A stretch of 64,000 bases of DNA from Candidatus Heimdallarchaeota archaeon. Lineage in GTDB: Archaea > Asgardarchaeota > Heimdallarchaeia > Hodarchaeales > Hodarchaeaceae. The stretch covers positions 160,001 through 224,000 of the forward strand of contig RDOB01000002.1 in the NCBI GenBank assembly GCA_011364965.1. The letters are read 5' to 3'. Position 1 is the first letter of the stretch. Every line of letters begins with the position of its first letter. Below, in pieces: positions 13,127-33,388 of this stretch. The notes under the pieces are model-generated. The model saw only the letters and a list, made by a program, of their open reading frames with translations. It searched no databases and had not been told where the DNA came from. Both the position numbers and the translations under genes were made by a program.

Positions 13127-13268
13127 TACTTTTCTCCTAAATTGATACTTCCAACTAAAAAATAGACAGCTAGGTTCCAAATCTGTTTTAAATGGAATCA
13201 AACTATGATGATTTACTAAAGATCATAATTCATAATAATTATAATTATAATCTATATAGACTAAAATA

Positions 13269-15764
13269 ATGCCTTATCATCGCAAACTATCGTCAGAGGT
13301 GTTTCCTCGAAAATTATTCTGGGAAACTTTTATTGAATTGGACCATTCAGTCGAAAAAAAACTCTTAATCGAAATTTTACAAATATCGAAGAAAAGAAAT
13401 CTCATTTTTGAGGTTTTGGATGAACAAGGTTGGTCGGAATGGAAAGATAACCCAGACAAATTAGTAAAAGGTATTGTTCCACTATTAATTGCATTATTTT
13501 GTGATAGAATAACAATTTCGATTTCTATATTTAAAAAATCCTTTCAATTTGAAGATTTAGTAGCTCAAATGCGAAGAGATATTGGGAGTAGTTCTTCAAA
13601 TAAAAAAATTCTGAGTTTTTTCAATTTAGTGTCCAAGCTTTTGGATCAATCTCCAGAAAATGATTCAGAGTATCCAATAACTTGTCTTTCATATTTTCCT
13701 TTGAATAGAATTCTACATATTCTTTTTGAGTCCGAAGATGAATGTTTACTTGGATTAATTCTAATTCAAGAGTTACTACACCATAGTGATCAACAATACC
13801 TTTTACTTCCCTTTCTATACGAAAATGGGGTTCCCAGTCGATTACAACAGCTTCAAGGACAAGTTTTTACTCCACCAGAAATAACTAATTTTCTAGCAAA
13901 ATTTTCATTATCAAAAGCTGATTTTCGCAAAATAATTGATCCTGCTTGCGGAACGGGACTATTTTTATTAGCAGCTTTGGATTATATTTCTCATTCTCAT
14001 CAGAGGACTTCGTTGAAATATATAATTGGAATTGAGAAAGATCCATACTTAGGATCGATTACAAAAAGTGCTATAAATTACTTTTTATATAAAAATCCAT
14101 CAATGAGCGTTAAGAGTAGTATTATTATACAAGATTTCTTTTGTTTAAATAATGAAGAAGAAAAAAGGCTGAAATCTGATGAAAAGGTTATTTATTATGT
14201 GAATCCTCCCTATACTCGACAAGAGAATATTCCAATGCAATATAAAACCTTGATTCAAACCATTATTCAGAAAGATTTAATTTTTTTTTCTAAGACTGGA
14301 GAAAATGTAAGAAAAGAATTTTCACGACGCTCTGGATTATATGCTTATTTCTTGCTTCATATTGCTGGAAAATTAAAAGAAAATGACTCTATCGGCCTTA
14401 TTATACCCAATTCTTGGCTAGATGTGGACTATGGTCTCTATATTAGACAATTACTTTATAAATACTTTCATATTCATACAATTATTATGACGACAAAGGA
14501 GAAGCTCATTCCAGCAGCTGAAGTTAATACAGTAATTCTATATGTAATTCGAGATTCCAAGAAGTCGATAAAGCAAGTAAACTACTATTTAATAGAGAGA
14601 AAAAGTGATCTAGCATTAATTTCCCTTGGTATGAGGGAAAAGATCCCTTTTCATAAGAAATTTGATCAACATGTATTAGATCCTCCAAAAAAATGGAATG
14701 CAATTTTAAAAGCCCCAAATTGTTATTTGAATCTCTTAAATCTATTAAATGATAAATTAATGCCCCTTAAAAGCATTGCATCTATAAAAAGAGGTTTTAC
14801 AACTGGAGCGAATGATTTTTTTTATCTAGGTAAACCTGGATGTGAAAATAAATATTTTCGATCGGAATGGGATTCTGAAAGTGGGGACCTTCTTCTATAT
14901 CTGAGAGATGATAGAATTCAAGAATTTTATCGTTTGGGATGGACTATAAAGGAGCCCATGTTCAGGATTGAGAAAGAATACTGGATGCATTCATGTAGGA
15001 ATAAATCAAAGGGATTAAAAATAAAATTTGTAGATTCCAAAGAAGTAGAATGGATTCCCAATTATGTAGTTAAATCCCCTAAAGAACTACAAAAGTTTGA
15101 AATCAACGAGTCTGAAATTAACTACGTTGTATTAATTATTTGTCACTCAATTTCAATTGAAAAGGGAGTGCAAGAATATATTCATTGGGGAGAAAAATGG
15201 GTTCCTTCCTCGGGAAGAAAATATCCTCTTAGGCCTACTTGTAAAACGAGAGCGAATTGGTTTTGTTTACCACTCTTAAAAAAAGAATCATTTCCTATTT
15301 TGGGAATGATGACTATCAATGATCGATTTGCATTTTTTTACAACCCCTCGAAATATTATTTTGATGCGAGATTTTATGGCATTCAATTGACAAATTCCCT
15401 TGATGAAATTGCTTTTATTTTTCTTTTCTTGAATTCTATCGTGGCAGCATTTCAATTGGAATTATTGGGAAGGAGTAATTTAGGAGAAGGAGGACTTGAC
15501 ATCAAAGTTTATGAATATGAAGATTTAATGATTCCCAACATTAATTTAATAAATGGAAATGCTGTTTTAATATCAAAAAAGATCTTTAAAGAAACAATCC
15601 ATAAAAGACCCCTTTCGATTCGTGAGGTAGATTTTGAAGATGAATTTATCAAGGTTAATCTTCTATTCAACGTTCAACTAGATCCTGAGGTATTAAAAAA
15701 TTTAAAAACCGAACTAGAAACTTTAGTTCGATTAAGACTAAGCAAAGCAAAATCATTTCAATAA
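13269..15764 (+). CDS. Gamma-class N6-adenine DNA methyltransferase (Eco57I/type IIG-like M plus TRD, no evident nuclease)
   Basis: GQVFTP, IDPACGTGLFL, NPPY, IKRGFTTGANDFF, GRSNLGEG. Confidence 0.88.
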   Translation: MPYHRKLSSEVFPRKLFWETFIELDHSVEKKLLIEILQISKKRNLIFEVLDEQGWSEWKDNPDKLVKGIVPLLIALFCDRITISISIFKKSFQFEDLVAQMRRDIGSSSSNKKILSFFNLVSKLLDQSPENDSEYPITCLSYFPLNRILHILFESEDECLLGLILIQELLHHSDQQYLLLPFLYENGVPSRLQQLQGQVFTPPEITNFLAKFSLSKADFRKIIDPACGTGLFLLAALDYISHSHQRTSLKYIIGIEKDPYLGSITKSAINYFLYKNPSMSVKSSIIIQDFFCLNNEEEKRLKSDEKVIYYVNPPYTRQENIPMQYKTLIQTIIQKDLIFFSKTGENVRKEFSRRSGLYAYFLLHIAGKLKENDSIGLIIPNSWLDVDYGLYIRQLLYKYFHIHTIIMTTKEKLIPAAEVNTVILYVIRDSKKSIKQVNYYLIERKSDLALISLGMREKIPFHKKFDQHVLDPPKKWNAILKAPNCYLNLLNLLNDKLMPLKSIASIKRGFTTGANDFFYLGKPGCENKYFRSEWDSESGDLLLYLRDDRIQEFYRLGWTIKEPMFRIEKEYWMHSCRNKSKGLKIKFVDSKEVEWIPNYVVKSPKELQKFEINESEINYVVLIICHSISIEKGVQEYIHWGEKWVPSSGRKYPLRPTCKTRANWFCLPLLKKESFPILGMMTINDRFAFFYNPSKYYFDARFYGIQLTNSLDEIAFIFLFLNSIVAAFQLELLGRSNLGEGGLDIKVYEYEDLMIPNINLINGNAVLISKKIFKETIHKRPLSIREVDFEDEFIKVNLLFNVQLDPEVLKNLKTELETLVRLRLSKAKSFQ

Positions 15765-15788
15765 AAGAAATGAAAAGGTTTTGAATTT

Positions 15789-18008
15789 ATGGTAAATATA
15801 AGTGTCGTTGAAAGAAAGCAAAAGGGACAATTTTTCACCAAAACTGAGATTGCAGTAAAAGTTGTAACGGAAATTTGCAATGACTTAATCGGGTATTTAG
15901 ATCAAGGTAATAAGAAAGACTATTCTATGTTTATAAACAAAATATTAAACATTAAGTTAATTGATCCCGCAATGGGTGATGGAGTTTTTCTTGTTGTTGC
16001 TTTAGAATATTTTACGAAAATCATTCAAGATATCTGGGGAGAAATAGTGAAAGATAATAATGTTCGTGCAAAGAATGATTTTAAAGAACGATTCAGGATA
16101 AATGGAATGAATAATGCTTTAACTGAATTAGATCGAGACCTGATTTGTCTTAAAATTCTATCTGAAATGATTTATGGAGTTGAAGTAGATCGTTTTATCT
16201 ATGAAAAAGCTATTCAAAATATTTTAGGTTTGTTTAATGTTCCTGAAGTTATAGAGATGGCAAAAAAACTCGTGAAAATTAAAATTAAACAAGGGAACTC
16301 TCTTATTTCTCCTTTACCATTAGAATTTAAAAAAAGTTTCAAATTTCTTTCTTTATTTAAATCAGAAATTAATTTAATTGTGAAAAATAGAGAAGCAATC
16401 TCTAAATTAATACTTGAAGGTTCTGATGTTTTAATTAAGAGAAAATTTATTGAAAACTCCCAAATTCGTAATTTAGTTATATCTAAGCTTAAAGGAGAAT
16501 TTTCAGATAGTAGTCAACTGCTTTACTTAACTTTGTTAAAGAAAAAAGAACAAATTCCTTTTTTTTGGGAGTTAGAATATCCTGAAGTCTTTTTATCAAA
16601 TAAATTTGGATTTGATGTGGTAATAGGTAATCCCCCTTGGGATAAATGGAAACTTTATGACAGAGAATGGCTAGGTTCGACTGTTCTTTCTTCTCCTGAA
16701 TTAATTAAGGAAACAATCAATGGTGCTCCATCAGAGTCTAAATTAAAATATCTTGAACTAAAAGAGTATTATAAAGAAACCTCAAAATACTTTAATACAT
16801 GCTATAAATGGCAACCTGGGGAAAAAAATCTTTATAAATTATTTCTGGAACGTTTTTATGATCTTACCTCTGAAATGGGTTATTTTGGAATAATTATTCC
16901 GAGTGGAATTCTAGGGGAATATTTTAGTAAATCATTACGAAAAATGCTTTTAGAGAATGTAAAATTAATATCTGTTACAGAAATTGTATCTAATAAGGAA
17001 ATTTTCTCTGAGGTTGAACCAGGGATTAGTATTTCAGTAATACTGGCACAGAAGAATACACCTGATGTTACTTTTCTCTTTTCTAAAGATATTCATTCTT
17101 TAGATGATTTTAAACAAGCTCAAATGCGACTAATAGAAATAAACAATACTAATCATGTTCGAATGAATCGTAATGAAATAATATCTACTTCCCCTCATTA
17201 TATCATTCCATCAATACGTAATAACAAGGAATTAGCAGTCACAAGAAAAATTATTTCATTTCCATCGTTAACGTCTAAAGAATGGAAATGTAAGACATCA
17301 CGTGGTTTAGACATGACCAATGATCGTAATATGTTAACAAAGGATCCAAACGCATATCCTTTGGTTGAAGGCAGACATTTAGTCAGATTGGGGTATGATG
17401 ATAAACACCCTCGTTTTTGGATTCAATCACCTCAAAGATATTTTGAAAAATTCCCTTTTTGGAGAAGAACTTTCATTGGATGGAAAAATTTCTCTGGTAA
17501 TCATAGAAGAAGAAGAATGCGAATAGCTATTTTCCCAAAATCCACTTTCATATCTAATAGCATTTTATGTCTTTATGATTTTCCTGAGCAGGAAGATATT
17601 GAATATTATTTAGCTGGGGTATTATGTTCCGTTCCTTTTGAATTTCGAATTCGACAGATTTGTTATGGATTAAATATCAATCAATTTATAATCAAAAAGA
17701 TGAATATCCCAGCTTATGAAATGAAAAATCCTTTGCACAAAGCACTAGTTAATTTAATCAAAGACTTCGAACCCATTGGGATAAACTGGGCTTATAGAAA
17801 AATGGAGGCCTCCTCCTCTTCCGCAAAATCAGCTCTCGAGAAAGATTATTATCTTTATATAGCCCAAATAGATGCATTGGTTGCTCTAATTTATAATTTA
17901 ACAAAAGAAGAGTTTATTGTTACGCTTCAAGCACATCAAAGGTTAGAATCTTCCTACACAGAAGCAGCAGTGAATTCTTATACAAAATTCTCCCAAAATT
18001 TTAATTGA
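15789..18008 (+). CDS. Gamma-class N6-adenine DNA methyltransferase (Eco57I-like)
   Basis: KGQFFT at residue ~12, IDPAMGDGVFL, GNSL, FFWELEYPEVF, GFDVVIGNPPW, NLYKLFLE. Confidence 0.9.
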   Translation: MVNISVVERKQKGQFFTKTEIAVKVVTEICNDLIGYLDQGNKKDYSMFINKILNIKLIDPAMGDGVFLVVALEYFTKIIQDIWGEIVKDNNVRAKNDFKERFRINGMNNALTELDRDLICLKILSEMIYGVEVDRFIYEKAIQNILGLFNVPEVIEMAKKLVKIKIKQGNSLISPLPLEFKKSFKFLSLFKSEINLIVKNREAISKLILEGSDVLIKRKFIENSQIRNLVISKLKGEFSDSSQLLYLTLLKKKEQIPFFWELEYPEVFLSNKFGFDVVIGNPPWDKWKLYDREWLGSTVLSSPELIKETINGAPSESKLKYLELKEYYKETSKYFNTCYKWQPGEKNLYKLFLERFYDLTSEMGYFGIIIPSGILGEYFSKSLRKMLLENVKLISVTEIVSNKEIFSEVEPGISISVILAQKNTPDVTFLFSKDIHSLDDFKQAQMRLIEINNTNHVRMNRNEIISTSPHYIIPSIRNNKELAVTRKIISFPSLTSKEWKCKTSRGLDMTNDRNMLTKDPNAYPLVEGRHLVRLGYDDKHPRFWIQSPQRYFEKFPFWRRTFIGWKNFSGNHRRRRMRIAIFPKSTFISNSILCLYDFPEQEDIEYYLAGVLCSVPFEFRIRQICYGLNINQFIIKKMNIPAYEMKNPLHKALVNLIKDFEPIGINWAYRKMEASSSSAKSALEKDYYLYIAQIDALVALIYNLTKEEFIVTLQAHQRLESSYTEAAVNSYTKFSQNFN

Positions 18009-18033
18009 GAAGTAAAGCGATCAATTGATTTAT

Positions 18034-20661
18034 TTATGCTTGTGAAGATAGAAAATCTTTGATATAAGCGATCTCTAACTCAGTAATTTTAAATAATTCA
18101 TAGATTATTTTATTGATTTTATCAAACTCACCAATAAATTTATTCGAGTTATTGAACATCTTCCTTACTAAATTTACCAAATACGAATAATTCTTTGAAT
18201 TTTTCATCAAAAAAATTGGAAAGTGTTCAATTTGACGTGGATAAAATTCATACACGTTGCCTAAATTTTTAATAGAGTTGAGTGCATAGAAAGTGAGAAG
18301 CTCTGAATTGAGCAATGAAAGCAAATAGTAAAGTATATCTTCCTCAGTTCGATATTCATCTTTGGGAATAAGCCAAATCACATCCTTTGAAGAGAGCGAA
18401 CCTAGTTGATCTAAAGCAAAGGTATTTTTTTTGGATTTATATGGTGAGACGATTTTTGGACGTTCCCAATCCATTGTATTTCTTTCATCACCTTTTCTCC
18501 ACAAAAAATATTTTTGAACCCTCGATCTGTCAAATAACAGCTCTTTATTATTTCTTAGATAATCCATGAGTTTAACATCTTCTAAAATATCCTTTTCTTT
18601 ATAAAAGGGAGCAAAAATCACTTTTCTTTTTTTATATTCAACAAAATAGTTTTTAATGTCTTTACCTTTGATCCATGTTCTCAAATTAGAATCTTTTATT
18701 CCCATCTCATTTGAAAAATAGTCAGGTTTGTTTGTTGTGAAAACTTTGTCACAACCAGTCTCCACTCCTTTACTTATATCAAAAAATTGATTCAGGGTAA
18801 AGTTTGAAGCTTCTCTAATCTTTTTAAGAATTTTAAGAGTCATTTCATTATGAAATATCCATTTTTGTGGTTTTAATGAATTTTGATGTACTTGTAAGAA
18901 AGAATCATAATTCAAATCATTTTTCGGAGTATAGCGAAAAACAGCGATAGAATTTGTTTTCATCTCCTTTTTTTTCAGTATTAATACAATATTACTTATT
19001 TGTACTTCATTGAATAAGGAAATATTCAAAAAATCGTGGATTTCAAGTATTTGAGCAGAATTTTGAATAAATTCTCGTGTTCTAGCTGCATAAACGCTAT
19101 GCAGTAAATATTTTGGCAAAATAAATCCCAATAATCCTCTTAAGGGTTTTAAAGCTTCAATGCTCCTAACCAGAAAAAAGTAGGAAATATCATTATTTCC
19201 TGTGTAGATTTCTGGATATATAAAGCTCAATCTTTTTCTCAATAGTAGAGGAAGATCTGTTAGAGCAATAAAAGGTGGATTTCCGAGAATAATATCAAAT
19301 TTAGGATTTTTTCCAATTTTGAAGTCTATCCAATGAAATAAATTCGTAATTGTTGAAGGTTGTAGATGAGGTTGAAGAATAGATAGCTCATTAGCCTCTC
19401 CCCTAGTCATTGGTGATGAAAAAACAGCATATAGAGTAGTATTTGTTTGAAATGTATTTGAAAACCTTATTTTTGTTAAGGAAATGTCATCTAGTTTTAA
19501 TTTTAATGATGTCCATCTAATACGATCTCCTTCAAAAATAAGATATCGAAATTTAGGAATTTTTCTGAATATTTCTAATAATCCCGAAATTGTATTTTCA
19601 TTATCGAATTCATTATTATTAACATTATTAAAAGTGATTCTATAAACGGGATACTTCAATTCTAAATTCTTATTAAATAAATCATCTCGAGAGCATTCTA
19701 TGTTATCATTTTCTTCTCTCTGGTTTTCATTATTTTGAAATCCAAATAATGAGTTCCCTTTATATATATTGCATCGAAAAGGAGTTTCTTTAGAGTTACT
19801 CGAATCAAAACTCCATAACCATAATTTTAATCTTGAAATAAGAATTGCTACTGTATCTATATCAATACCAAATAAAATATTTTCAACAATCATTTTTTTA
19901 ATCGTTATTTCATCAGTTGGGGTAGAAAAAGATTCAAGCATTTCATTAATTATATTTCCACAGGCAATTAGGAAAATTGAACTTCCAGTAGCTGGATCCA
20001 GTATTTTTAAATTTGAAATTTGCTTTATTATATGTCTATTATCTGAGGAATCCTCTAAGTGAATTCTAGATATCCAAGAATTCACCATTTTTTCCGAAAG
20101 TTTAAGAGCAAACCAATATGGAGTGTAAATTTGGCCAAAACTTTCTATGTCGGTCTTATATGATCTTGAAATGAACTTTACATAATCAAATATAGAAAAA
20201 TCTATTACATTACTTTCTTGATCATATTCTTTAGTATGGTCGTTGATCCAGACGTAATTTTCCTTAAATTCTCTTGCAATGTTTTTCCAATTGATTTTAT
20301 TCAATTTAACTTGATCTACATAATCATAATGGTCAAAAAGATTAAAACAAACCTCTTTTGGTATTATGGAATTTATAAAATTTAAAAAATCCTTTTCTTG
20401 AAACAAAATTTCCTCCCAGGTCGTAATCTCTCTATTTTTCTTATCTATTTTATTTGGATCCAAAAAAAATAATGAGATAAATTGTAAGAGGATTATTTTG
20501 GAATAATCCATTTGTAAATGGCTTGGAATGATAACATCTGCAATATTTTCATATAGATTTTCTAATAGTATGCGAATACTTCTTGGTAGTTGCTTAATGC
20601 CCTTATTTCTGTCCTTAAGACAAAATATTAGCTTTTCCTCCAACCAAGAGAATCTAATCAT
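18034..20661 (-). CDS. Gamma-class N6-adenine DNA methyltransferase with TaqI-like C-terminal TRD
   Basis: GQIYTP, ILDPATGSSIFL, FGIDID, GNSL, FDIILGNPPF, KGVETG, LLSLLNS. Confidence 0.88.
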   Translation of the reverse strand: MIRFSWLEEKLIFCLKDRNKGIKQLPRSIRILLENLYENIADVIIPSHLQMDYSKIILLQFISLFFLDPNKIDKKNREITTWEEILFQEKDFLNFINSIIPKEVCFNLFDHYDYVDQVKLNKINWKNIAREFKENYVWINDHTKEYDQESNVIDFSIFDYVKFISRSYKTDIESFGQIYTPYWFALKLSEKMVNSWISRIHLEDSSDNRHIIKQISNLKILDPATGSSIFLIACGNIINEMLESFSTPTDEITIKKMIVENILFGIDIDTVAILISRLKLWLWSFDSSNSKETPFRCNIYKGNSLFGFQNNENQREENDNIECSRDDLFNKNLELKYPVYRITFNNVNNNEFDNENTISGLLEIFRKIPKFRYLIFEGDRIRWTSLKLKLDDISLTKIRFSNTFQTNTTLYAVFSSPMTRGEANELSILQPHLQPSTITNLFHWIDFKIGKNPKFDIILGNPPFIALTDLPLLLRKRLSFIYPEIYTGNNDISYFFLVRSIEALKPLRGLLGFILPKYLLHSVYAARTREFIQNSAQILEIHDFLNISLFNEVQISNIVLILKKKEMKTNSIAVFRYTPKNDLNYDSFLQVHQNSLKPQKWIFHNEMTLKILKKIREASNFTLNQFFDISKGVETGCDKVFTTNKPDYFSNEMGIKDSNLRTWIKGKDIKNYFVEYKKRKVIFAPFYKEKDILEDVKLMDYLRNNKELLFDRSRVQKYFLWRKGDERNTMDWERPKIVSPYKSKKNTFALDQLGSLSSKDVIWLIPKDEYRTEEDILYYLLSLLNSELLTFYALNSIKNLGNVYEFYPRQIEHFPIFLMKNSKNYSYLVNLVRKMFNNSNKFIGEFDKINKIIYELFKITELEIAYIKDFLSSQA

Positions 20662-21456: not shown

Positions 21457-21707
21457 TTTAGATCATTTTTCCTTTTTCATCTGGATTGAGAATTGTTTTC
21501 ATGATTTTATCCGTAATTATCAACAAATTTATACATGTGATTAAATAAACTTTCTTATTACTAGCAATAGTCGGGACTACCAAGTCTTATTTCAATAATT
21601 TTGAAGCAACTAACTTGATTTTTGTTATCCGACATAATTATTTTACCCTTATTTTTTCTTCTCTATTTTAACCTTTTTTCAAGAAAAGGAGTATCTTTTA
21701 ATCAGAC

Positions 21708-21780
21708 TTTATAAATGCATGTGATACGCCTTATAAATGTGTGAGGAATTAAGTAGGATTTATAAAGGCCGATACGCCTT
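21708..21780. promoter_or_regulatory. Imperfect direct repeat TTTATAAA-N(4-7)-GATACGCCTT with three TTATAAA boxes in the divergent region upstream of the polymerase
   Basis: TTTATAAA at 21708 and 21759, TTATAAA at 21731, GATACGCCTT at 21723 and 21771. Confidence 0.45.
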
Positions 21781-22023: not shown

Positions 22024-25000
22024 ATGGCATCCTCACAAAGAAGAAACGAAACATTTTTAGGTTATAGATCGTGGTTTGATGCGTTTCGATTTAATGAAAG
22101 AATCTCCCTTCCAATTTTTATTCTTGATTATCAAACATCAAGTTTTTGGAAGGAAAATGAGGAGACAATTAATGAGTATGAAACTGATCAAAATCACTCG
22201 CGATCCATGCTAATAAATGGTATACAAATTTTCTTCCTTGATGAAAATCATCAAAAACGTAAAGCATTTTTACGTCATGAACCTTACTTTTATCTCTTAC
22301 TTGAAAAAGACCTTTCAAAGGAACATCTCAATCGAATCATTTCACAAATCTATCAAATAGGAGAAAATCACGTTCAACAAATAGAGGAGAAGAATTACTA
22401 CGATGCTGCTGATCTTACATTCCTTGTTTCCAAGTCATTTCTAAAGATCACCGTTGATCATCCCGGTTCTGTTCCTAAATTACGAGATAAATGTGAAGCA
22501 TTAAATGGAGTAATCGAATGGCGAGAAGCAGATGTATTATTTCATCATAGAACTGCAATAGACCATAATTTACGCGTAGGATATTGGTATCAAGCTGAAA
22601 TCCGAGGTGGAGAAATTCAATCTATTTATCATATAAATAATAAAGCACCACCTCAATTAAAAATACTAGCATTCGATATAGAAACTGCTTTTGAAACAAC
22701 AAGAGAACCTAATCCGAACCGCGATGAAATATCAATGATTTCATTATTTACTGGAGATAGGAACTATCTTCTAGTAAATTCGTCTGTGGTTGAAACCAAG
22801 GATATCAGAAATATTGATATACTCCTAAGGTACGCTGATAAAGAACATAAGAAGCCTTGGGTGGATTGGCGATATTCAAATGATACTTTTGAAGCGCCTG
22901 AACATATTGAAAAGTATTATTTTAATATCCAGCTCTTTGATAACGAGCGAGAAATTTTACAGGCATTTTATCAAGTGATCAGAGACTATCAACCTGATGT
23001 TCTTGCTGATTTTTTTGGGGGAAGATTTGATATCCCTTTTCTTTCTGTGAGGTCAGAGCTTAACAATTTGTCTTTGGAAAGGGAAACTGGATTTAAGATT
23101 GTTTTTAAAATAGGTACCGGTAAAAGATCAAACGAAAAGACTGATTTGAAGAACAATTATACTCCTAATAGCATAGATTATGTTGAAGGAGCAGGAATTA
23201 TACATCTAGATGCCTTCCTATTTAATGAGAAATACAGTTACCTTCCCAAGAAGGATTTAGGTTTAAAACAGAGTGTTGAGAAAAAACTCAAAATTATTCC
23301 AATAGGTAGAGAAGCATTATTTGCTATCGAAGAAAATCCTGCCGAAGCTGCTGCATATGCGGGATGTGATGGATATATTTCGTGGAAATATGTTAAGGAA
23401 ATTGTCCTTGATTTTTTCATCTCTATGGGACAGATGTTTCCCGTTCCTGCTTCAGAGTTGTTATCCCGAAGATCAGGCTCTTTGGATGACTTATTGATCG
23501 ATGCAGAAAATTTCCAGCATGGAATTGTCAGTAAAAGAAAAATCTCTTCCAAAATAATTGAATCTTTTTCGCCTAAACTTGTGATAAACAATCTTGCTTA
23601 TACAGGTGGACTAGTTGAAGCTAGACGTCCTGGAATTTTCAGAAGTGATATTTTCTATGATTTTAAATCAGAGAAAGAAGCTTTAGATGAATTAAAGATT
23701 GCAATTGAAAAAGTAATACGAAAAGAAAGTATGGAATTAAATAAAAAGATTATAAAGGAGGAATTTGAGAAACAAGTCCTCTCTGAGCTTGGAGATGTGG
23801 TTATTGAGTATTCAGAAGATCCTTCTGAGATCTTATCACAAATTGAATCTGGAATGGTAAGAAATGGTGTTCCAAGAGCGAAATTAAAGATCCAGTTGAA
23901 TAAAATTCGGGATATATTAGAAAATATATCTGCATATCACCCTGAAGATGTGGAAAATATTATAGATGAGGTATTTCAAGCACTAGACAAATTAAAGCTT
24001 TCTAATGACAAAACAAAGTTAATTGGAGTTCATGTTGACGTTACAAGTATGTACCCATCTCAAATTCGTCAATATAAACTTCAACCTTCAGGAATTGTAC
24101 CTTTAACGAAATGCCAAACATGTGATTTATACGAAAAGGATGAAAGTTGCCTTTTTGACGGAGATTGGGTTATAAAAATTTCATCACAGCGTCCTTGTCG
24201 ATTTAAGGTGGAAGGTTCTAGTAAATGTGATCCCTCAGTTTGCAAAGCGGAGAATGAACTAAAATGTAAAAGGTATCAACCTTTGCAAGATTCACTTGGA
24301 CGATCTCAAGAGATTTATACCTTTAATGGAGAAAAAACAGAAGCTTATACCAGAAGAGGTGACCAATTAATACAAGTTCCAATAAGTGAAACCTATTTGG
24401 GTTTAACAACTGAACATGATCTTTTCATTTCTGTTCAACAGTGGTTACGAAGAAATGTAGAGGCAACTCAATTAACAACTAAATTGGACAAGAACTATTT
24501 TGATATATTTGAAGATCAACCTCCTGATTTTGAACTTCCTCCCAATACGTTCATGAGTATTGATACTAGAACGAAAAAAATTAGTATATTGTTATCTGTA
24601 AATTCTCGGGTGTGCCAAAAAGCATATAATTTTGTTGCCAGAATTATGGATGATTTTTTCAATACAAGGGTAAAGCATAAGTTAGAGGCCCAAAGACTTA
24701 AACAGGTTATTTCTCAAAGGAAATCTGCAAATTTAGCTATTCCTTCTGAATTAACTAGACTTCAAAAATTCCATGATAGCACACAATTAGGAATGAAAGT
24801 TCCTTTAAATAGTATATACGGACTTTTAGGTATGAAGGGAGGTGTAAGAAATGCTAGTACGCCCTGCGCTGGAATTACAACAAAATTGTCAGCAGATTTA
24901 ATCCATTGGGCTGCAGAAGAGCTAGAGTACGTTGGTTTAGTTACAGAATTAGATACTGATGGTATCTGGTTATGGGTACCCCAAGATTTTCCGCTTTTCT

Positions 25001-26427
25001 TTAAAGTTTGCCTTTCCAATCCTAATGTTAAGAACAGTAAGAAGCAATTTGAAGTAAGTCTAATCGACAAAATTCTCAACGAAAAGGTCAAGAAATTTTC
25101 TCAGAACGATAATTATTGGGTAAATGACGGGCATTGTATTAGTCGATCGCGAAAGAACTTAATTAAATTTGAACAAGACGGCCCCTATGATTTTCAGTTT
25201 GTCATGGGAAAAAAGAAATATATAATTTATAATTATGAAAATAATGAATGGCAAGAAAAAGAGATAACTGGATTAGAATCAAAAAGAGCAGACTTTTCAA
25301 AATTACAGAAATATTTTCAAGAAAAGATCATCAATAGCTATCTAGAGGACTATGATCCGCAAAATCCCATTACTTTAGAAGAGCTTTATCAAAATGCAGA
25401 TAAAATGGCTCAGAAAATAAAAGAAGAAATTTATAGCGGAACTATTGATCCTAGTTATTTCGTAAAACCAAAAGCTATCAACAAACCTTTAAGTGCTTAC
25501 AAATCCAAACTTCCCCAAGTGAACGCAGCTTATATCCTTCGAGACCTTGGTTTTTCTGTGGATCCAGGTACAAGGATCCAGATGTTAAATTTAAAAGGTA
25601 ATCATGTAATCCCTCGACAAGTTTTTGATTTTGATTTCAAGAAAATAAAGGAAGTTCTTGTTAAGCATGCAATTGCTACATTGAGTTTCATGCTGGGAGA
25701 ACTATCGACAAAAGAGGACCTAATGAAATTAATTGATGTGAATCAGTACTCAGAAGATCTTTTTGGTCCCGGAAGAATTTATGATAGAATGATAAAATAT
25801 CCAATGGAAATTCAACAAGTTTCGAGTAGTGCACAAACAACTTTGAATCTAAAATCGAAAATCAGAAGTAAGAAGACTGAGACTGATAGTAATTTTGAAG
25901 ATGAAGGCCCCATTACTGATGAGAAAGAAAATTTAAAAAATGAAAAAGCATTACCACATCTTAAACCAAAACCGAGACAAAAAAGAGGGATTCGCAGAAA
26001 GAAAAAGAGGCAGAGGAATGAAGCTCAGCCTATTGCACTTGATGCTTTACTTGAACCTTCACAATCAGTTAATAAGGGAAATAAAATTGAAATCAAAGAG
26101 AATGAGTATATAACAAGAGAAACCGAGGCCAAAAAAGTAATCCAAATAAGGGGCTCCTCCGATAAAGTAGAATCTGAAGTTTTTAGAGAAAATTCCCAGA
26201 ATAAATCTCTAAGTAAAGATGCTTTGGTTTCCACTGATGAAATTTCTGAGTTAGAATCAGATGAGATTTTTAATAATGGATCTGGCAATGGTAAGAGTGC
26301 AAAAAGTCTAGAGTTAGGAACGTTGGAGGAAGAGCTAATTGTCTGCTCGGAATGTGGGGCGTTAGTAAGCCCGCGAGAAATTACTAATGAAGGGTGTATT
26401 TTCTGTGGAGGAGAATCTTTAATCTAA
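22024..26427 (+). CDS. Family B DNA polymerase, eukaryotic Pol epsilon (POLE/Pol2)-like catalytic subunit
   Basis: AFDIET (ExoI), FDIPF, SYLP, YAGCD, GIFRSDI, HVDVTSMYPS, LQP, CxxC-x8-C, KVPLNSIYG, ELDTDGIW, FEQDGPY, GLESKR; C-terminal CSEC..CIFC. Confidence 0.95.
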   Translation: MASSQRRNETFLGYRSWFDAFRFNERISLPIFILDYQTSSFWKENEETINEYETDQNHSRSMLINGIQIFFLDENHQKRKAFLRHEPYFYLLLEKDLSKEHLNRIISQIYQIGENHVQQIEEKNYYDAADLTFLVSKSFLKITVDHPGSVPKLRDKCEALNGVIEWREADVLFHHRTAIDHNLRVGYWYQAEIRGGEIQSIYHINNKAPPQLKILAFDIETAFETTREPNPNRDEISMISLFTGDRNYLLVNSSVVETKDIRNIDILLRYADKEHKKPWVDWRYSNDTFEAPEHIEKYYFNIQLFDNEREILQAFYQVIRDYQPDVLADFFGGRFDIPFLSVRSELNNLSLERETGFKIVFKIGTGKRSNEKTDLKNNYTPNSIDYVEGAGIIHLDAFLFNEKYSYLPKKDLGLKQSVEKKLKIIPIGREALFAIEENPAEAAAYAGCDGYISWKYVKEIVLDFFISMGQMFPVPASELLSRRSGSLDDLLIDAENFQHGIVSKRKISSKIIESFSPKLVINNLAYTGGLVEARRPGIFRSDIFYDFKSEKEALDELKIAIEKVIRKESMELNKKIIKEEFEKQVLSELGDVVIEYSEDPSEILSQIESGMVRNGVPRAKLKIQLNKIRDILENISAYHPEDVENIIDEVFQALDKLKLSNDKTKLIGVHVDVTSMYPSQIRQYKLQPSGIVPLTKCQTCDLYEKDESCLFDGDWVIKISSQRPCRFKVEGSSKCDPSVCKAENELKCKRYQPLQDSLGRSQEIYTFNGEKTEAYTRRGDQLIQVPISETYLGLTTEHDLFISVQQWLRRNVEATQLTTKLDKNYFDIFEDQPPDFELPPNTFMSIDTRTKKISILLSVNSRVCQKAYNFVARIMDDFFNTRVKHKLEAQRLKQVISQRKSANLAIPSELTRLQKFHDSTQLGMKVPLNSIYGLLGMKGGVRNASTPCAGITTKLSADLIHWAAEELEYVGLVTELDTDGIWLWVPQDFPLFFKVCLSNPNVKNSKKQFEVSLIDKILNEKVKKFSQNDNYWVNDGHCISRSRKNLIKFEQDGPYDFQFVMGKKKYIIYNYENNEWQEKEITGLESKRADFSKLQKYFQEKIINSYLEDYDPQNPITLEELYQNADKMAQKIKEEIYSGTIDPSYFVKPKAINKPLSAYKSKLPQVNAAYILRDLGFSVDPGTRIQMLNLKGNHVIPRQVFDFDFKKIKEVLVKHAIATLSFMLGELSTKEDLMKLIDVNQYSEDLFGPGRIYDRMIKYPMEIQQVSSSAQTTLNLKSKIRSKKTETDSNFEDEGPITDEKENLKNEKALPHLKPKPRQKRGIRRKKKRQRNEAQPIALDALLEPSQSVNKGNKIEIKENEYITRETEAKKVIQIRGSSDKVESEVFRENSQNKSLSKDALVSTDEISELESDEIFNNGSGNGKSAKSLELGTLEEELIVCSECGALVSPREITNEGCIFCGGESLI

Positions 26428-28924: not shown

Positions 28925-30844
28925 TTAATCTTCCATTGGATTTAATGTTAGATTTAAACTTTCTATTAGGCTTTTAATCTTGTATTTAGCTTCCGCTGAG
29001 ACAAATTCTCCCTCCTTTTGCCTTAAAGATTTTATTCGATCTTGAATAGTTTTTTCTCGTTCTTTATCATTAATTTTCGGATTCAATTCGGTCCAATCTA
29101 ATAAAAAGGAAGCTGCACGCATGAAATAATCTAGTGATTTTGATTCTTCATTCTCGTTGAACGCTACAATCCCTGCATGGTGATACATTGTACTTGCTCT
29201 CCGAAAACTGATTCCTGCGTTGATTATGATCTTTTCTTGTTGTTCTTGCGCCTTCTGGTTTTTCAAATCATTTTCCAATCCTTTTGCTGCCTCCAAAAAG
29301 GCATATGCTGCTTTCTCGTACTGCTCGATCTGGAATAAGTTATTTGCATATTCAACATTAACAAAAACCATTTCAGAGGGTGAAAATTTTCCTTTTCTTA
29401 AATACTTTAACGCGTCTTCAAAAGAGCTTAATGCTGCACGAATTGCGTTATTTTTGTTTTCTAGCTTTCCTCGTTCAAATAATGTTAGACCTAATAGAGC
29501 TGAAGATTGTTCTGAAGATTCTTGTTTATAAAGGATTTCAAGAATTTTATTAAATAGCTTCAATGAGACATTTGGAGAATCAGAGTTTTTTGCTGTATCA
29601 AATAATGTTTTTGCTGCAAGAATGTTTTCATTTACATCAATGAAAATATTAATGGCAGTTAATAATAGTGAAAGCGCTTTTTCACTGTTTCCAAGTGAGA
29701 AGTATGCATTTGCTGCAAGTATTAAAGAGCGGGCCGTATCCTTCTCCCTTCCTGGTATTTTTTGAAGAAGATCGGCTGTTGTGATTCGTTGTTCAGCTGC
29801 TTTCCTAAGTAAACCTAATGCTAATGCTGGATTCTCGTTTTTTTCTTGGTCTGCTTGAGACGAAAGTTTACTTGAATAGATTGCAGAAACTTTTGCAGCT
29901 AAAGATATATCTGAAGATTTAGCAAGTTTTATTGCTTTTTCAAAATAGCTATTTGCTTCTTCACGTTTATTTTGTTCATGATAAGCAGTTGCTATTTCAT
30001 AATTCAATATTATTTGCGTTTTTGGATTTGTTAGCCAAAGTGATCCTGCTTGCATTAATTCTATTGCTTTATCAAATTCTTTTAGATAAGATGCAGCTTT
30101 TCCTGCCAAGAAAGAAGATTCTCCTGCTTTTTCGAGCTGTCTTACCTGTGCAAATAAATCAGCAGCTTTCTCAAAAGCTTCTTTTCCATCGTGAAAATTT
30201 CCACTTGCTAAAAAAATATTTCCAACTAACATGAAAGCTTCAGCTGAAGAATTATCATCAATGGTTTCCAAACGATTTGCTATCTTTAAAGCAGTCCAAA
30301 GCTGCTGTCTATCTTTTAGCTCTGTCCAAGCTTGCTTTGCAACTTCTAAGTCTCTTAATGCTTGTGAAATAGCATAATCTTCCCCTACATCCATTGAAAT
30401 TGATTTTGTTTCGATTTTTTCAGGCTCTCTTGACGATTTTGAAGCAATTTTATACCAAATATCTTCTGTTTTAAAGTTAGATTTTCTTTCCTTTAATATG
30501 TTTAAATATTCGTAAATATACATATTTAAATGCGTATTGATTAAATAGGAAGTTTCCTGATCCGAGATGAACGCTATGAAGAATACTCTTTCTTTTCCTC
30601 TTAATGAATGATCTTCCCAAGAATCAAACGCAACTCTGGCAACTGTTGTGTTACCAAGGCTTAACAGAGGCACAGTGAATTCCGTTCTTTGCGTATGACC
30701 GTGTTGTCCAAAAACAGTGACAGAGGCCAAATAAATTTGTAATGCTACTGATTCTGGGTCTTCTAAAGATGAATTAGGGTAAATTGAAATGATTTGGGGT
30801 CCAGATACTTCATCCCATTGAACTGCAAGTATTGATAAATCCAT
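28925..30844 (-). CDS. Longin/uDENN (FLCN/SMCR8-like) domain fused to a SNAP-like TPR solenoid
   Basis: WDEVSGPQIISIYP and DHSLRGKERVFFIAFIS, then repeated A..F..AA..F helices. Confidence 0.8.
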   Translation of the reverse strand: MDLSILAVQWDEVSGPQIISIYPNSSLEDPESVALQIYLASVTVFGQHGHTQRTEFTVPLLSLGNTTVARVAFDSWEDHSLRGKERVFFIAFISDQETSYLINTHLNMYIYEYLNILKERKSNFKTEDIWYKIASKSSREPEKIETKSISMDVGEDYAISQALRDLEVAKQAWTELKDRQQLWTALKIANRLETIDDNSSAEAFMLVGNIFLASGNFHDGKEAFEKAADLFAQVRQLEKAGESSFLAGKAASYLKEFDKAIELMQAGSLWLTNPKTQIILNYEIATAYHEQNKREEANSYFEKAIKLAKSSDISLAAKVSAIYSSKLSSQADQEKNENPALALGLLRKAAEQRITTADLLQKIPGREKDTARSLILAANAYFSLGNSEKALSLLLTAINIFIDVNENILAAKTLFDTAKNSDSPNVSLKLFNKILEILYKQESSEQSSALLGLTLFERGKLENKNNAIRAALSSFEDALKYLRKGKFSPSEMVFVNVEYANNLFQIEQYEKAAYAFLEAAKGLENDLKNQKAQEQQEKIIINAGISFRRASTMYHHAGIVAFNENEESKSLDYFMRAASFLLDWTELNPKINDKEREKTIQDRIKSLRQKEGEFVSAEAKYKIKSLIESLNLTLNPMED

Positions 30845-30874
30845 TCTTGAAGTATAACTCTCTTCAATTGGCGT

Positions 30875-32629
30875 TTATAATATCTCCTTTTGTTTAGGTC
30901 GTTTTTGTCTAAGATCAATTATCTTTTTCTCTGAAGTCGATTTTCTATCAACTAAATGTAATTTTCCCTCATTTAATTCAATCGATGGAGCTAAAGGTGT
31001 AAAAGATTCCTTACTTTGTAATCTGATAACAATATTAGCTTCTTTATCTGTATCAAGGATTTCCCACTTCAATAGAAGACAGGTTTTTTCTGAGAAAATA
31101 GAGGGTTTTAGGTGCGGAGGGTCTACTAAAATGATATCGACATCTGAGGGAATTCGATCAGTGAATACTAATTTAGATTCGAGAGGATTTATGAACTTGT
31201 AATACCAAAGAAATTCATAATTTAATGATTCAATTACTGGCTGAGATACTTTCTCTATTCTAATGATCTCGTTATTGTATTCAATTTCATCAATATAATG
31301 TCGTGTTAGTGGTTTTTCTTTGAATGAATACTTTAAATGAAAGTTATCCCCAGGAGCAAGAGTTCTGAACATCCAGCGAAATAACGTACTATCATGAGTT
31401 GGGATCGTTACAGGTTTGATTTTTAATCCAGCTTCCATATTGTTAACAATAAGCTCTGGAGGTACTACATCTTCAATAAGTACCTCTCTGAATAGCTCAC
31501 CAGAAGTATTGACAAAATTTAATTCTGTAGTGAGGTTTTGATCTATTGAATAGTATGAGCTCAGCACTAAAACTTCAGCTCCTCGTCTTAGTATAATAGA
31601 ACGTTCAATTCGTTTTCTGAGAATATATTCAACCGATTTTGATTGACCTGGATTTAATTGACCAGATTTCCAAGTATAAACCAAACCTTCTTCTGTTTTC
31701 TTTCTCTCATCTAGGTTAAGATCTGATTTAATATCTATTACCTGCCATTGAAAAGGAATTGTGTTTACTATCTCTAAGTTTAGTAATTCCTGTTCAAATT
31801 CATTTTTTACATCTGTTTTCGCAATGTAATCCAAATCTAACGTATCATTCATTCTTAAATCTGCAGCAAAATCCTCGAGATTAGGATCTTCTCCAATTAT
31901 AGTGGTGGATTCTTCCTCTATAACATCATTTTCAACAACACTTAAAGTGAAATTTGGTTGAATAATTTTTAATTCACCAGAGGAGTCTTTCACCACAGCA
32001 TTGGTTTCAATTGCAGTAAGTTTTTGGTCCCTTGTGACTTTAGAAACTGCAGCTAAAACATCATAAGTGTTGAGCAACGACTCCTTTTCTACTTGAAGTT
32101 GAGGAATCCTATAGTTTTTCTTGCTTAAAAGAACATCATCTTCTATAAAATCCTCGCTCTCAAGTGGAATCAAGTCCTCATCTACTTGGATAGGGAGTAA
32201 ATCAATTTCTGGAAGTATATCATCCAAAGAGGAAGATTCTTCTTCCTCGATGATTTCAGTCTTGGCTTTTGAGGCTTTCCTTCTATCCATTGTATCTAAG
32301 GCTATTCTGTAATGATGAGTAGCAGAAGTAAATCCAAAAGTTTTTCCTTTTTCAATAAGTGTTTCAGCAATTTCGATATTATCGCTCATTAAGTACCTAA
32401 GTATTGCTTTGCCATAGCAATTAGCTGCTTTATCCTCCTCTCCTAATTCAAGGAAAAGATCTCCAGCTAGTGTTAGATGCTGTGCAGCTCTATCTCTTTC
32501 CCCTATACTATCAAAACATCTCGCTGCCTCCTCAAAGATATCAGCAGCAATATTTATTGAATGTTTTGTAGCTTCTTTTCCTTCAGTAACCAGTTTAGTA
32601 CAATCAGTGTCTTTTATTGACTTCACCAT
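30875..32629 (-). CDS. SNAP-like TPR, acidic linker and three Ig-like (DUF11-type) beta-sandwich repeats
   Basis: AADIFEEAARCF..AANCYGKA; D/E-rich linker; three N/D-x-I/V-P...W..L(xPG) units. No signal peptide. Confidence 0.78.
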   Translation of the reverse strand: MVKSIKDTDCTKLVTEGKEATKHSINIAADIFEEAARCFDSIGERDRAAQHLTLAGDLFLELGEEDKAANCYGKAILRYLMSDNIEIAETLIEKGKTFGFTSATHHYRIALDTMDRRKASKAKTEIIEEEESSSLDDILPEIDLLPIQVDEDLIPLESEDFIEDDVLLSKKNYRIPQLQVEKESLLNTYDVLAAVSKVTRDQKLTAIETNAVVKDSSGELKIIQPNFTLSVVENDVIEEESTTIIGEDPNLEDFAADLRMNDTLDLDYIAKTDVKNEFEQELLNLEIVNTIPFQWQVIDIKSDLNLDERKKTEEGLVYTWKSGQLNPGQSKSVEYILRKRIERSIILRRGAEVLVLSSYYSIDQNLTTELNFVNTSGELFREVLIEDVVPPELIVNNMEAGLKIKPVTIPTHDSTLFRWMFRTLAPGDNFHLKYSFKEKPLTRHYIDEIEYNNEIIRIEKVSQPVIESLNYEFLWYYKFINPLESKLVFTDRIPSDVDIILVDPPHLKPSIFSEKTCLLLKWEILDTDKEANIVIRLQSKESFTPLAPSIELNEGKLHLVDRKSTSEKKIIDLRQKRPKQKEIL

Positions 32630-32634
32630 CTATT

Positions 32635-33018
32635 TTATCGACTAACTCGATATCTTGATTGTATTGTCAAAACTTCAGAAACTCTTGGAACATAATCTTC
32701 GAGCGGATCCCGGTTGTCATATGTGATCGATTGAAAACTTCTAGAAAATAATACCCATGCAACGCGCTTGGTATTACTTTTAACAAAACGTATTAAAGTG
32801 CTCGATGCCTCTAATCCCCCTTCTCCAAAATAGATAGTGCAAATGTCAATTATTTTTTTTTCTAGTTCATCATTTTGTTCTTTTCCAAAGCGGTGAATTA
32901 ATTCTAGTAAATCCGCTTCTCGAGGATTAATTTTTCTCTCTTTTAGTAGTTTAATGATAACAGCTCGATCCGTTAATATATTACTTGCCTCATCAAATGA
33001 GAGATTGATAAATGGCAT
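32635..33018 (-). CDS. Hypothetical protein, first gene of the operon
   Basis: 127 aa; its stop lies 5 bp before the next gene's start. Confidence 0.75.
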   Translation of the reverse strand: MPFINLSFDEASNILTDRAVIIKLLKERKINPREADLLELIHRFGKEQNDELEKKIIDICTIYFGEGGLEASSTLIRFVKSNTKRVAWVLFSRSFQSITYDNRDPLEDYVPRVSEVLTIQSRYRVSR

Positions 33019-33388
33019 CTCGATCCACTATCTTAGATTTTTGGTACTATGGGGAATTTTTTTTTAATAGCTGCTTTATTCTAATGAACTATAATTCAGG
33101 TACCTTTTGCAATTAGATCAAGCTTCTATTCATGTAAAGGAATAATCTATTATCTTTTTTTTCTATTTATTTTTTGTAAATATTTACATAAAAACATAAC
33201 CTAATAATCTTACAAATACCTTGCTGGAATGTAAAAAAAGAGAGTAGAAAGAACGACAAAGAAAAATTCCTGTTTTTATTTTTATAATGTTATTTTAAAG
33301 GGTTATTCTTGTTTGTTTGGTTTTTTGAACCAAACTCGATAAAATTCTTTATTAAATAATACTTTTCATGATTAAATAGAGATCAATA

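Follow-up and report, generated by a model that had tools for sequence, protein, structure and literature searches.

We analyzed a 64,000-nucleotide stretch of contig RDOB01000002.1 of Candidatus Heimdallarchaeota archaeon (assembly GCA_011364965.1, order Hodarchaeales; positions 160,001 to 224,000 of the forward strand), referred to below as the window, and within it a gene for a family B DNA polymerase (PolB). The gene, at positions 22024 to 26427 on the plus strand, is a single open reading frame of 1467 amino acids (aa) uninterrupted by any break, and its start codon is credible, since the N terminus of the translation (GYRSWF) aligns with homologs. The exact protein is already contained in the public protein collection (P0002). 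The exonuclease domain PF03104 and the polymerase domain (E 1.5e-14) were the only Pfam families above threshold; the Pfam model POL2_thumb gave no match, and NCBIfam yielded only a far sub-threshold match to Pol II (51 bits versus a cut-off of 570). In a preliminary description of the locus, the gene had been read as a relative of DNA polymerase epsilon (Pol epsilon), the leading-strand replicase of eukaryotes, in which only the active half is present, and the strings quoted there as typical of Pol epsilon are all found in the translation (SYLP, residues 405 to 408; GIFRSDI, 537 to 543; LQP, 686 to 688; ELDTDGIW, 975 to 982; FEQDGPY, 1049 to 1055). By sequence, by predicted structure, and in three phylogenetic trees, the window protein groups with the catalytic N-terminal half of eukaryotic Pol epsilon.

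In a phmmer search against all PDB chains, the catalytic subunits of yeast and human Pol epsilon ranked first, with E values of 1e-58 to 3e-53, and the runners-up were the PolBs of Thermococcales (3e-17) and Pol delta (7e-6). A word-indexed search of 5.8 billion proteins returned about 70 clusters at 36 to 76% identity, mostly labelled Hodarchaeales, Hodarchaeota, or Heimdallarchaeota and including the "DNA polymerase" of LC_3 (P0064, 38% identity); next after this family, archaeal PolB group B10 as discussed below, came full-length eukaryotic Pol epsilon (E 1e-55). When 1.84 billion representatives were scanned exhaustively with HMMER, the family likewise came first, followed within the best 150 matches by essentially only proteins of about 2000 aa, of which those sampled group with named Pol epsilon sequences.

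AlphaFold2 was used to model residues 60 to 1255 from an 82-row alignment. The mean predicted local distance difference test value (pLDDT) was 89.4 and the predicted TM score (pTM) 0.86; the lowest pLDDT values, about 67, were found over a segment with additional cysteines described below. When the model was compared with the PDB by Foldseek, Pol epsilon of yeast or human, as core or as holoenzyme, accounted for each of the top 36 matches (E 1e-62 to 3e-48), with TMq values of 0.66 to 0.71 for all but one and 21 to 22% identity. The enzymes KOD, 9°N, and Tgo followed at E 1e-34 (TMq about 0.5, 15% identity). In the viral library, the best PolB reached E 2.7e-30 with a TMq of at most 0.52. The structural comparison proposed in the preliminary description thus ranks the Pol epsilon cores (TM 0.71 at best) above both the Thermococcales and the viral enzymes. 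The fold is shared with the Pol epsilon core (yeast Pol2 residues 1 to 1187 and human POLE; PDB 4m8o, 6qib, 9b8r, and 9f6d) over approximately 1230 aligned columns, along with the exonuclease and polymerase motifs, the CysX cysteines, the P-domain insert, the ELDTDG motif, the Pro equivalent to human P286, and a motif of the PCNA-interacting protein (PIP) type past the thumb. The two differ in that the window protein, at about 22 to 26% identity, has neither a PF08490 module nor a CysA/CysB domain nor a match to POL2_thumb, whereas it adds a helical insert of 85 aa, a P-domain insert about twice as long, four extra cysteines, and KKKY in place of KKRY. Specifically, phmmer aligned stretches 155 to 574 and 642 to 715 to yeast Pol2, and the helical insertion between them has no counterpart there; in the model it forms helices at model residues 492 to 600 with pLDDT values of 76 to 94. 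The Thermococcales PolBs (group B3; KOD, Tgo, 9°N, and Pfu) have the family B fold and the catalytic residues in common with the window protein, but they comprise only about 775 aa, lack the P-domain and CysX, and carry YGDTDS as motif C.

Phylogenetic trees were calculated from the family, the N-terminal halves of Pol epsilon, 27 further Asgard PolBs drawn from 40 genomes, the two other PolBs of the same genome, and four weak matches of about 820 aa. Three settings were used, namely a quick LG+G4 run (75 taxa, 737 columns), a quick LG+C20+F+G4 run with posterior mean site frequencies (43 taxa), and LG+F+G4 with 1000 ultrafast bootstraps. All three trees gave 100% support for a group of the family, the eukaryotic Pol epsilon N-terminal halves, and two metagenomic proteins (P0089 and P0120, see below) against everything else, and within it 100% support for the monophyly of the family and for that of the eukaryotes. 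A branch with 100% support thus parts the window protein from the 27 Asgard PolBs and from the genome's own two PolBs. The preliminary description had proposed PolB phylogeny as a refuting test, naming a position among archaeal PolB1 to PolB3 or viral PolBs; the window protein was found with Pol epsilon, apart from the sampled Asgard and other prokaryotic PolBs. Members of the archaeal groups B1 to B3 have about 750 to 900 aa, YGDTDS as motif C, and no P-domain insert; the window protein does not belong to them, as is evident from its motif C (ELDTDG), its insert of 154 aa, and its separate branch. The characters it shares with Pol epsilon as derived states are the four CysX cysteines, the long insert that separates cysteine 3 from cysteine 4 of this set, and the motif C Glu. 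The four 820-aa proteins (P0090 to P0093) had been considered as candidates for bacterial group G3; they were rejected, as they have Tyr in motif C and fall outside the epsilon-like clade.

Residue conservation was assessed in an alignment of 39 family members, 33 Pol epsilon N-terminal halves, and other PolBs. As the preliminary description had stated, the exonuclease site is intact: D218 and E220 of ExoI, D336 of ExoII, and Y445 and D449 of ExoIII show no variation across the family and Pol epsilon. The same holds for D672 and Y677 of motif A, K925, N929, and Y932 of motif B, and D977 and D979 of motif C, as well as for K1064 and Y1066 of the KKKY motif, in which K1065 is replaced by Arg in Pol epsilon (KKRY). 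Residue E975 of motif C is found throughout the 39 family members and the Pol epsilon sequences, whereas other PolBs have Tyr; this Glu has been named as a shared derived character (PMC7544198). Residue P229 lies exactly 11 residues past D218, again as described earlier, and in the alignment it takes the place of a Pro that is conserved in each of the 33 Pol epsilon sequences; it is not specific to Pol epsilon, however, since PolB P0231 of the same genome has the equivalent Pro.

In the phmmer alignment, C697, C700, and C709 correspond to C665, C668, and C677 of the yeast Pol2 CysX motif, and C864 (RVCQK) corresponds to C763 (IVCQR). All four cysteines, the predicted ligands of an Fe-S cluster, are present without exception in the family (39 of 39) and in Pol epsilon (33 of 33). 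The insert between ligands 3 and 4 measures 149 to 186 aa in the family (154 aa in the window protein) and 59 to 161 aa, mostly about 83 aa, in Pol epsilon, compared with 8 to 12 aa at the same position in other PolBs. The P-domain and CysX have been stated to occur in no PolB except Pol epsilon orthologs (PMC12680538); contrary to this statement, all 39 B10 family members examined carry both. Moreover, each of the 39 has at least four further cysteines inside the P-domain insert, where the 33 Pol epsilon sequences have 0 to 2. In the window protein these are C725, C735, C740, and C748, arranged as C-x9-C-x4-C-x7-C, a sequence pattern that looks like a candidate second metal site (Cys4). We found no mention of this Cys4; a literature search for CysX in Asgard archaea yielded PMC12680538 as the only paper.

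Past the thumb, which ends at about residue 1260, the protein consists of a K/E/S-rich tail and one CxxC-x13-CxxC motif, just as first described. The second polymerase module of Pol epsilon is absent: there is no match to PF08490, and the roughly 205 residues past the thumb leave no room for it. The positions of all features are compiled in Table 1.

Table 1. Features of the polymerase gene (positions are those of the window; residue numbers are those of the translated protein)
Feature	Position	Strand	Basis or remark
Whole open reading frame, PolB group B10, like the N-terminal half of Pol epsilon	22024..26427	+	1467 aa
3'-5' exonuclease domain, aa 167-412, with ExoI D218/E220 and ExoII D336	22522..23259	+	PF03104, E 9e-24
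ExoIII Y445/D449, just past the exonuclease domain		+	No exception among 39 members of the family and 33 Pol epsilon sequences
ExoI motif FDIET to P229 (human P286 position, Asp + 11)	22675..22710	+	Alignment
Helical insertion of ~85 aa, aa 575-660, ahead of motif A	23746..24003	+	phmmer gap and model helices
Polymerase motif A HVDVTSMYPSQ, D672, Y677	24031..24063	+	Alignment
CysX C697, C700, C709, C864, flanking the 154-aa P-domain insert	24112..24615	+	phmmer alignment to yeast Pol2 CysX
Four extra cysteines C725, C735, C740, C748, in the P-domain insert	24196..24267	+	Candidate second metal site
Polymerase motif B KVPLNSIYG, K925, N929, Y932	24796..24822	+	Alignment
Polymerase motif C ELDTDGIW, E975, D977, D979	24946..24969	+	Alignment
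KKKY motif, K1063-Y1066	25210..25221	+	Alignment
Low-complexity K/E/S-rich tail, aa 1261-1435, poorly conserved	25804..26328	+	
Degenerate PIP-like motif QPIALDALL, aa 1335-1343, directly after a basic patch	26026..26052	+	Aligned in 11 close relatives
Conserved acidic motif STDEISELESDEIFNNG, aa ~1400-1419, ahead of the zinc ribbon	26221..26280	+	11 close relatives
C-terminal C4 zinc ribbon C1441, C1444, C1458, C1461	26344..26406	+	21/23 aligned family members

The C-terminal C4 ribbon (residues 1441 to 1461) is shared by 21 of the 23 family members aligned in this region; in the two members without it (P0048 and P0049), the C terminus is LRAFF, and LTKFF is present as well. Searched with the ribbon, Pfam gave generic zinc-ribbon matches only, all below threshold, and none to the zinc-finger families of Pol alpha or Pol epsilon; searched with the tail, the 85-aa helical insert, and the P-domain insert, it returned nothing above threshold. 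According to published clustering, the C-terminal domain of group B10 lies outside the eukaryotic and DP2 domain clusters and resembles ribbons of the RpoP/LysW type (PMC7544198). In the tail, 11 close relatives have a basic patch followed by [Q/P]xSL[D/E]x[L/I][F/L], with L1339 invariant, and an h-x-x-a-a motif is present in the tails of 14 of 16 scanned family members from all subgroups, in no case with the canonical Gln. For comparison, the PIP box of yeast Pol2 (1193-QTSLTKFF-1200) is located just past the core (PMC12709181). By analogy, the tail motif of the window protein may have a PIP function. The form and position of the motif vary within the family, as LDALL in the window protein compared with [L/I]SEFF shows. 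Nearer to the ribbon, the acidic motif ELE-x-x-E-I-F-x-NG has E1406, N1418, and G1419 invariant in the 11 close relatives. A complex prediction for the genome's PCNA (residues 1 to 262) and the polymerase tail (residues 40 to 206 of the tail alignment) gave a best score of 0.17 relative to a mark of 0.32, which speaks neither for nor against binding. This PCNA has 300 aa (G000 contig C9, 282255-283154; L037, 1465-2367) and ends in an acidic, D/E/W-rich extension of about 40 residues, the length of which is conserved across the genus. A B subunit binding the zinc finger had also been suggested; a DP1/Dpb2-like protein is indeed present in the genome, but the C-terminal domain of an ortholog showed no DP1 binding in yeast two-hybrid assays (PMC12680538).

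As an ordinary ortholog within a family that is already published and of evolutionary importance, the gene represents no new kind. Archaeal PolB group B10, with a single zinc motif, was described by Kazlauskas et al. in 2020 (PMC7544198), and the "PolB1" of Hodarchaeales has been read as a possible precursor of Pol epsilon from before the last eukaryotic common ancestor, without the eukaryote-type C-terminal domain (PMC12680538, Nat Ecol Evol 2025). The preliminary description was hence correct in noting that such genes had already been reported from Heimdall and Hodarchaeales genomes. The kind is considered known because the window protein has all defining features of B10 and is an ortholog of this "PolB1." With LC_3 it shares the clade with 100% support, the motif C Glu, the single C-terminal C4, the order-level distribution, and the altered DP1 and DP2 alongside; the two proteins are 38% identical and differ in their P-domain inserts (154 aa versus 183 to 186 aa). 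The C-terminal domain of Pol epsilon, which binds the B subunit (Dpb2/POLE2) and has paired CysA/CysB motifs, is absent, the single C4 ribbon being the only such motif. The window protein, although it works in the manner of the N-terminal half, is thus no Pol epsilon catalytic subunit, as both this domain and the inactive second module are missing. The PolBs of Baldrarchaeia and Aenigmatarchaea (group B6, Pol delta-like; PMC12680538) likewise have a Cys-rich C-terminal extension and are discussed as forerunners of a eukaryotic replicase, but these belong to a delta-like clade, and their C-terminal domain is homologous to those of DP2 and Pol alpha and binds DP1, whereas the window ribbon lies outside that cluster.

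A survey of 400 genomes of the phylum found the gene in 22 of the 23 other genomes of the order and in none of the 376 other genomes of the phylum, always as a single copy; the one genome of the order without it is 1.4 Mb in size and 71% complete. The confinement to the Heimdall LC3/B3 lineage (Hodarchaeales), with which the source names of the homologs agree, bears out the view of the gene as a taxonomic anchor. Some orthologs are interrupted by LAGLIDADG inteins in motif B (near residue 932) or motif C (near residue 978). Intein-bearing orthologs are P0016, P0021, P0028, and P0061 and those of genomes G060, G062, G067, G073, and G074; the window copy is intein-free. The G+C content of the polymerase gene, 0.336, equals that of the rest of the window, and three genes on the minus strand at 28925-33027 adjoin the polymerase in four of four compared loci, LC_3 included. 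They encode a 639-aa TPR/SNAP-like protein and proteins of 584 and 130 aa. The downstream gene for a 752-aa protein was not counted as a partner, because it is syntenic in close relatives only and not in LC_3 or at locus L040. Taken together, these observations identify the polymerase gene as a core chromosomal gene of the order Hodarchaeales.

PolD is the usual archaeal replicase, and in the genome of the window both of its subunits are retained at full length, DP2 with 1106 aa (P0234; G000 contig C13, 10976-14296; L007, 977-4297) and DP1 with 515 aa (P0233; G000 contig C12; L005, 1342-2889). The catalytic loop of DP2, however, reads NCSGNID instead of the canonical NCDGDED, so that D956 and D958, both shown to be critical for catalysis (PMC4996933), are replaced by Ser and Asn. 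D956 is replaced in all 19 genomes of the window's family that have a readable loop, including that of the window, with the variants NCNGD[IV]D, SCNG[AV][TNS]D, and NCSGNID, whereas the loop is canonical in seven of seven readable genomes of sister families; other loci have no visible loop, perhaps owing to inteins. Motif III of DP1 is GERD in the window's genome and GEHD in 11 of 11 other genomes of its family, whereas 19 of 19 genomes from sister families retain the canonical GNHD; motifs I, II, IV, and V are preserved. An inactive DP1 and the lack of an active DP2 had been remarked for LC3/B3 (PMC7544198); the residue survey reproduces this remark and extends it to the scale of the family. 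The reading frames of DP1 and DP2 are intact despite the lost residues, which suggests a noncatalytic role, and the catalytic decay of PolD predicts that the B10 polymerase or another PolB took over replication. Two further PolBs, P0231 (898 aa) and P0232 (873 aa), are encoded in the genome and have YGDTDS as motif C; P0232 has Leu for Tyr in motif B and forms a long branch.

Three metagenomic PolBs of half size, P0089 (1352 aa; L042, 8001-12059), P0207 (1368 aa; L109, 10001-14107), and P0120 (1357 aa; L043, 3236-7309), form a rare group that also resembles the N-terminal half of Pol epsilon. Like the window protein, they have one active module with CysX, ELDTDG, and KKKY; unlike the B10 family, they match Pfam POL2_thumb. 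P0089 and P0120, for which CysX, ELDTDG, and the insert were checked, belong to the same group with 100% support, have a P-domain insert of 71 to 83 aa with at most one extra Cys, lack the zinc ribbon, and end in PIP-like motifs (IDDFL and MKDFL). The contigs of P0089 and P0207 (30 kb and 91 kb) are dense with genes without a Pfam family and carry four N6/N4 methyltransferases, PCNA, PriL, a BRCT protein, an Arf/Ras GTPase, TnpB, and an SMC-like ATPase, a context that looks virus- or plasmid-like; those of P0120 are short (about 7.8 kb) and uninformative in this respect. In the trees, P0089 and P0120 lean toward the eukaryotes more than toward the B10 family, with 90 in the Shimodaira-Hasegawa-like approximate likelihood ratio test (SH-aLRT) and 79 in the ultrafast bootstrap (UFBoot). 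The half-size group may therefore be nearer to eukaryotic Pol epsilon than B10 is, although this support is too weak for a conclusion.

In our interpretation, which we hold with considerable confidence, the window gene encodes a catalytically competent, proofreading B10 PolB with a core like that of the N-terminal half of Pol epsilon, which acts as a chromosomal replicative polymerase and uses its tail as a docking arm. The core would be built from an N-terminal domain, the exonuclease, the palm with the P-domain, the CysX ligands of a [4Fe-4S] cluster at the P-domain's base, the fingers, and the thumb, and by analogy to Pol epsilon the P-domain would confer intrinsic processivity. The disordered tail of about 175 aa, with its degenerate PIP-like motif, and the zinc ribbon would together serve for the docking of partner proteins. 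The enzyme would be a chromosomal replicase and probably the main one, because PolD has lost catalytic residues in both subunits in the window's family. Several points weigh against this interpretation. Activity, Fe-S binding, and a role at the fork are predictions from sequence and model. The trees leave out Pol alpha, delta, and zeta, groups G3, B8, and B9 of Kazlauskas et al., and viral PolBs, so that the published tree is needed, in part, to place the family as sister of Pol epsilon. The PIP-like LDALL of the window protein has neither an aromatic residue nor Gln at the canonical position. Furthermore, the replicase could be P0231 instead, which looks fully active; D958 of DP2 is kept in most genomes of the family, so that some PolD activity might persist, and the change from Asn to Glu in DP1 might still permit metal binding.

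In an alternative reading, P0231 replicates the chromosome and the B10 polymerase is specialised in repair or translesion synthesis. In favor of this, P0231 also appears to be an active PolB, and the large clade of PolBs to which it belongs is spread over many of the sampled Asgard families. We nevertheless regard such a division of labor as quite improbable: the exonuclease sites of translesion PolBs, for example PolB2 and Pol zeta, are degenerate, whereas the proofreading site is intact here, in a high-fidelity architecture of the Pol epsilon type with P-domain and Fe-S ligands, and both the inteins of orthologs and the strict single-copy conservation fit an essential gene. Even less credible is a polymerase belonging to an integrated mobile element or a defence island. 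Just upstream of the gene, at 13260-20661, lie three genes for N6-adenine methyltransferases of the Eco57I/MmeI type, AT-rich with a G+C content of 0.28 to 0.30 and without a nuclease domain detectable by Pfam, and similar methyltransferases flank the polymerase at two of the other loci (L038 and L041). LC_3 and L040, however, keep the polymerase and its downstream neighbours without them, the G+C content of the polymerase gene is that of the genome, the gene is present once in nearly every other genome of the order, and a Pfam search of seven neighbours found neither an integrase nor a terminal protein nor a capsid protein, nor did Rfam detect an RNA nearby.

With regard to the origin of the gene, the preliminary description had proposed a pre-fusion architecture. 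The single active module and the absence of a second one stand, while the ancestry itself is plausible at most, the trees being unrooted and containing long branches; transfer to or from stem eukaryotes or by way of a mobile element is conceivable as well. One such scenario, in which an ancestor of Hodarchaeales acquired the gene horizontally, either as a truncated POLE from a stem eukaryote or from a virus or plasmid that was likewise the source for eukaryotes, appears somewhat unlikely to us. It would account for the confinement to one order, and it agrees with the argument that groups B4 to B10 were probably introduced from mobile elements (PMC7544198), with the virus- or plasmid-like contigs of P0089 and P0207 and the tendency of the half-size group toward eukaryotes, and with the extensive exchange argued for between proto-eukaryotes and Heimdallarchaeia (PMC12395588). 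On the other hand, the family lies outside the eukaryotic clade and is not nested in it, it has derived features of its own (the extra Cys4, the larger P-domain insert, and the zinc ribbon), and the gene is now stable, chromosomal, and surrounded by conserved neighbours. The direction of a transfer is not readable because the trees are unrooted.

The origin of Pol epsilon is a live question of eukaryogenesis, and the B10 family anchors its discussion. To what is known of this family, our analysis adds the order-wide count of its distribution, the extra Cys4, the decay of PolD at family scale, and the half-size relatives. If they hold, the universality of CysX and Cys4, the family-wide PolD decay, and a rarer, possibly mobile-borne group that may be nearer to Pol epsilon could sharpen the published picture. 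A more far-reaching idea, which we consider decidedly unlikely, is that the hodarchaeal replisome prefigures the two-part Pol epsilon, with an active B10 polymerase holding a second, Cys4-bound metal centre, a dead PolD as helicase scaffold (its counterpart being the dead C-terminal half of Pol2 with Dpb2), and the half-size genes of virus- or plasmid-like elements as the true closest relatives of the Pol epsilon N-terminal half. Were this the case, the half-size genes would point to a mobile-element route of that half into eukaryotes. The window gene can serve as a lineage marker of Hodarchaeales and, with its good model (pLDDT 89), as a candidate for biochemistry.

Between 15 and 34 kb of the window, Rfam detected no RNA family and no tRNA. 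The intergenic region 5' of the polymerase gene comprises 567 bp and contains, at 21698-21780, two copies of the unit TTAA-N6-TTTATAAA-N-GATACGCCTT, which themselves have no Rfam match. The copies are about 50 bp apart, resemble TATA boxes, and lie approximately 250 to 320 bp ahead of the start codon.

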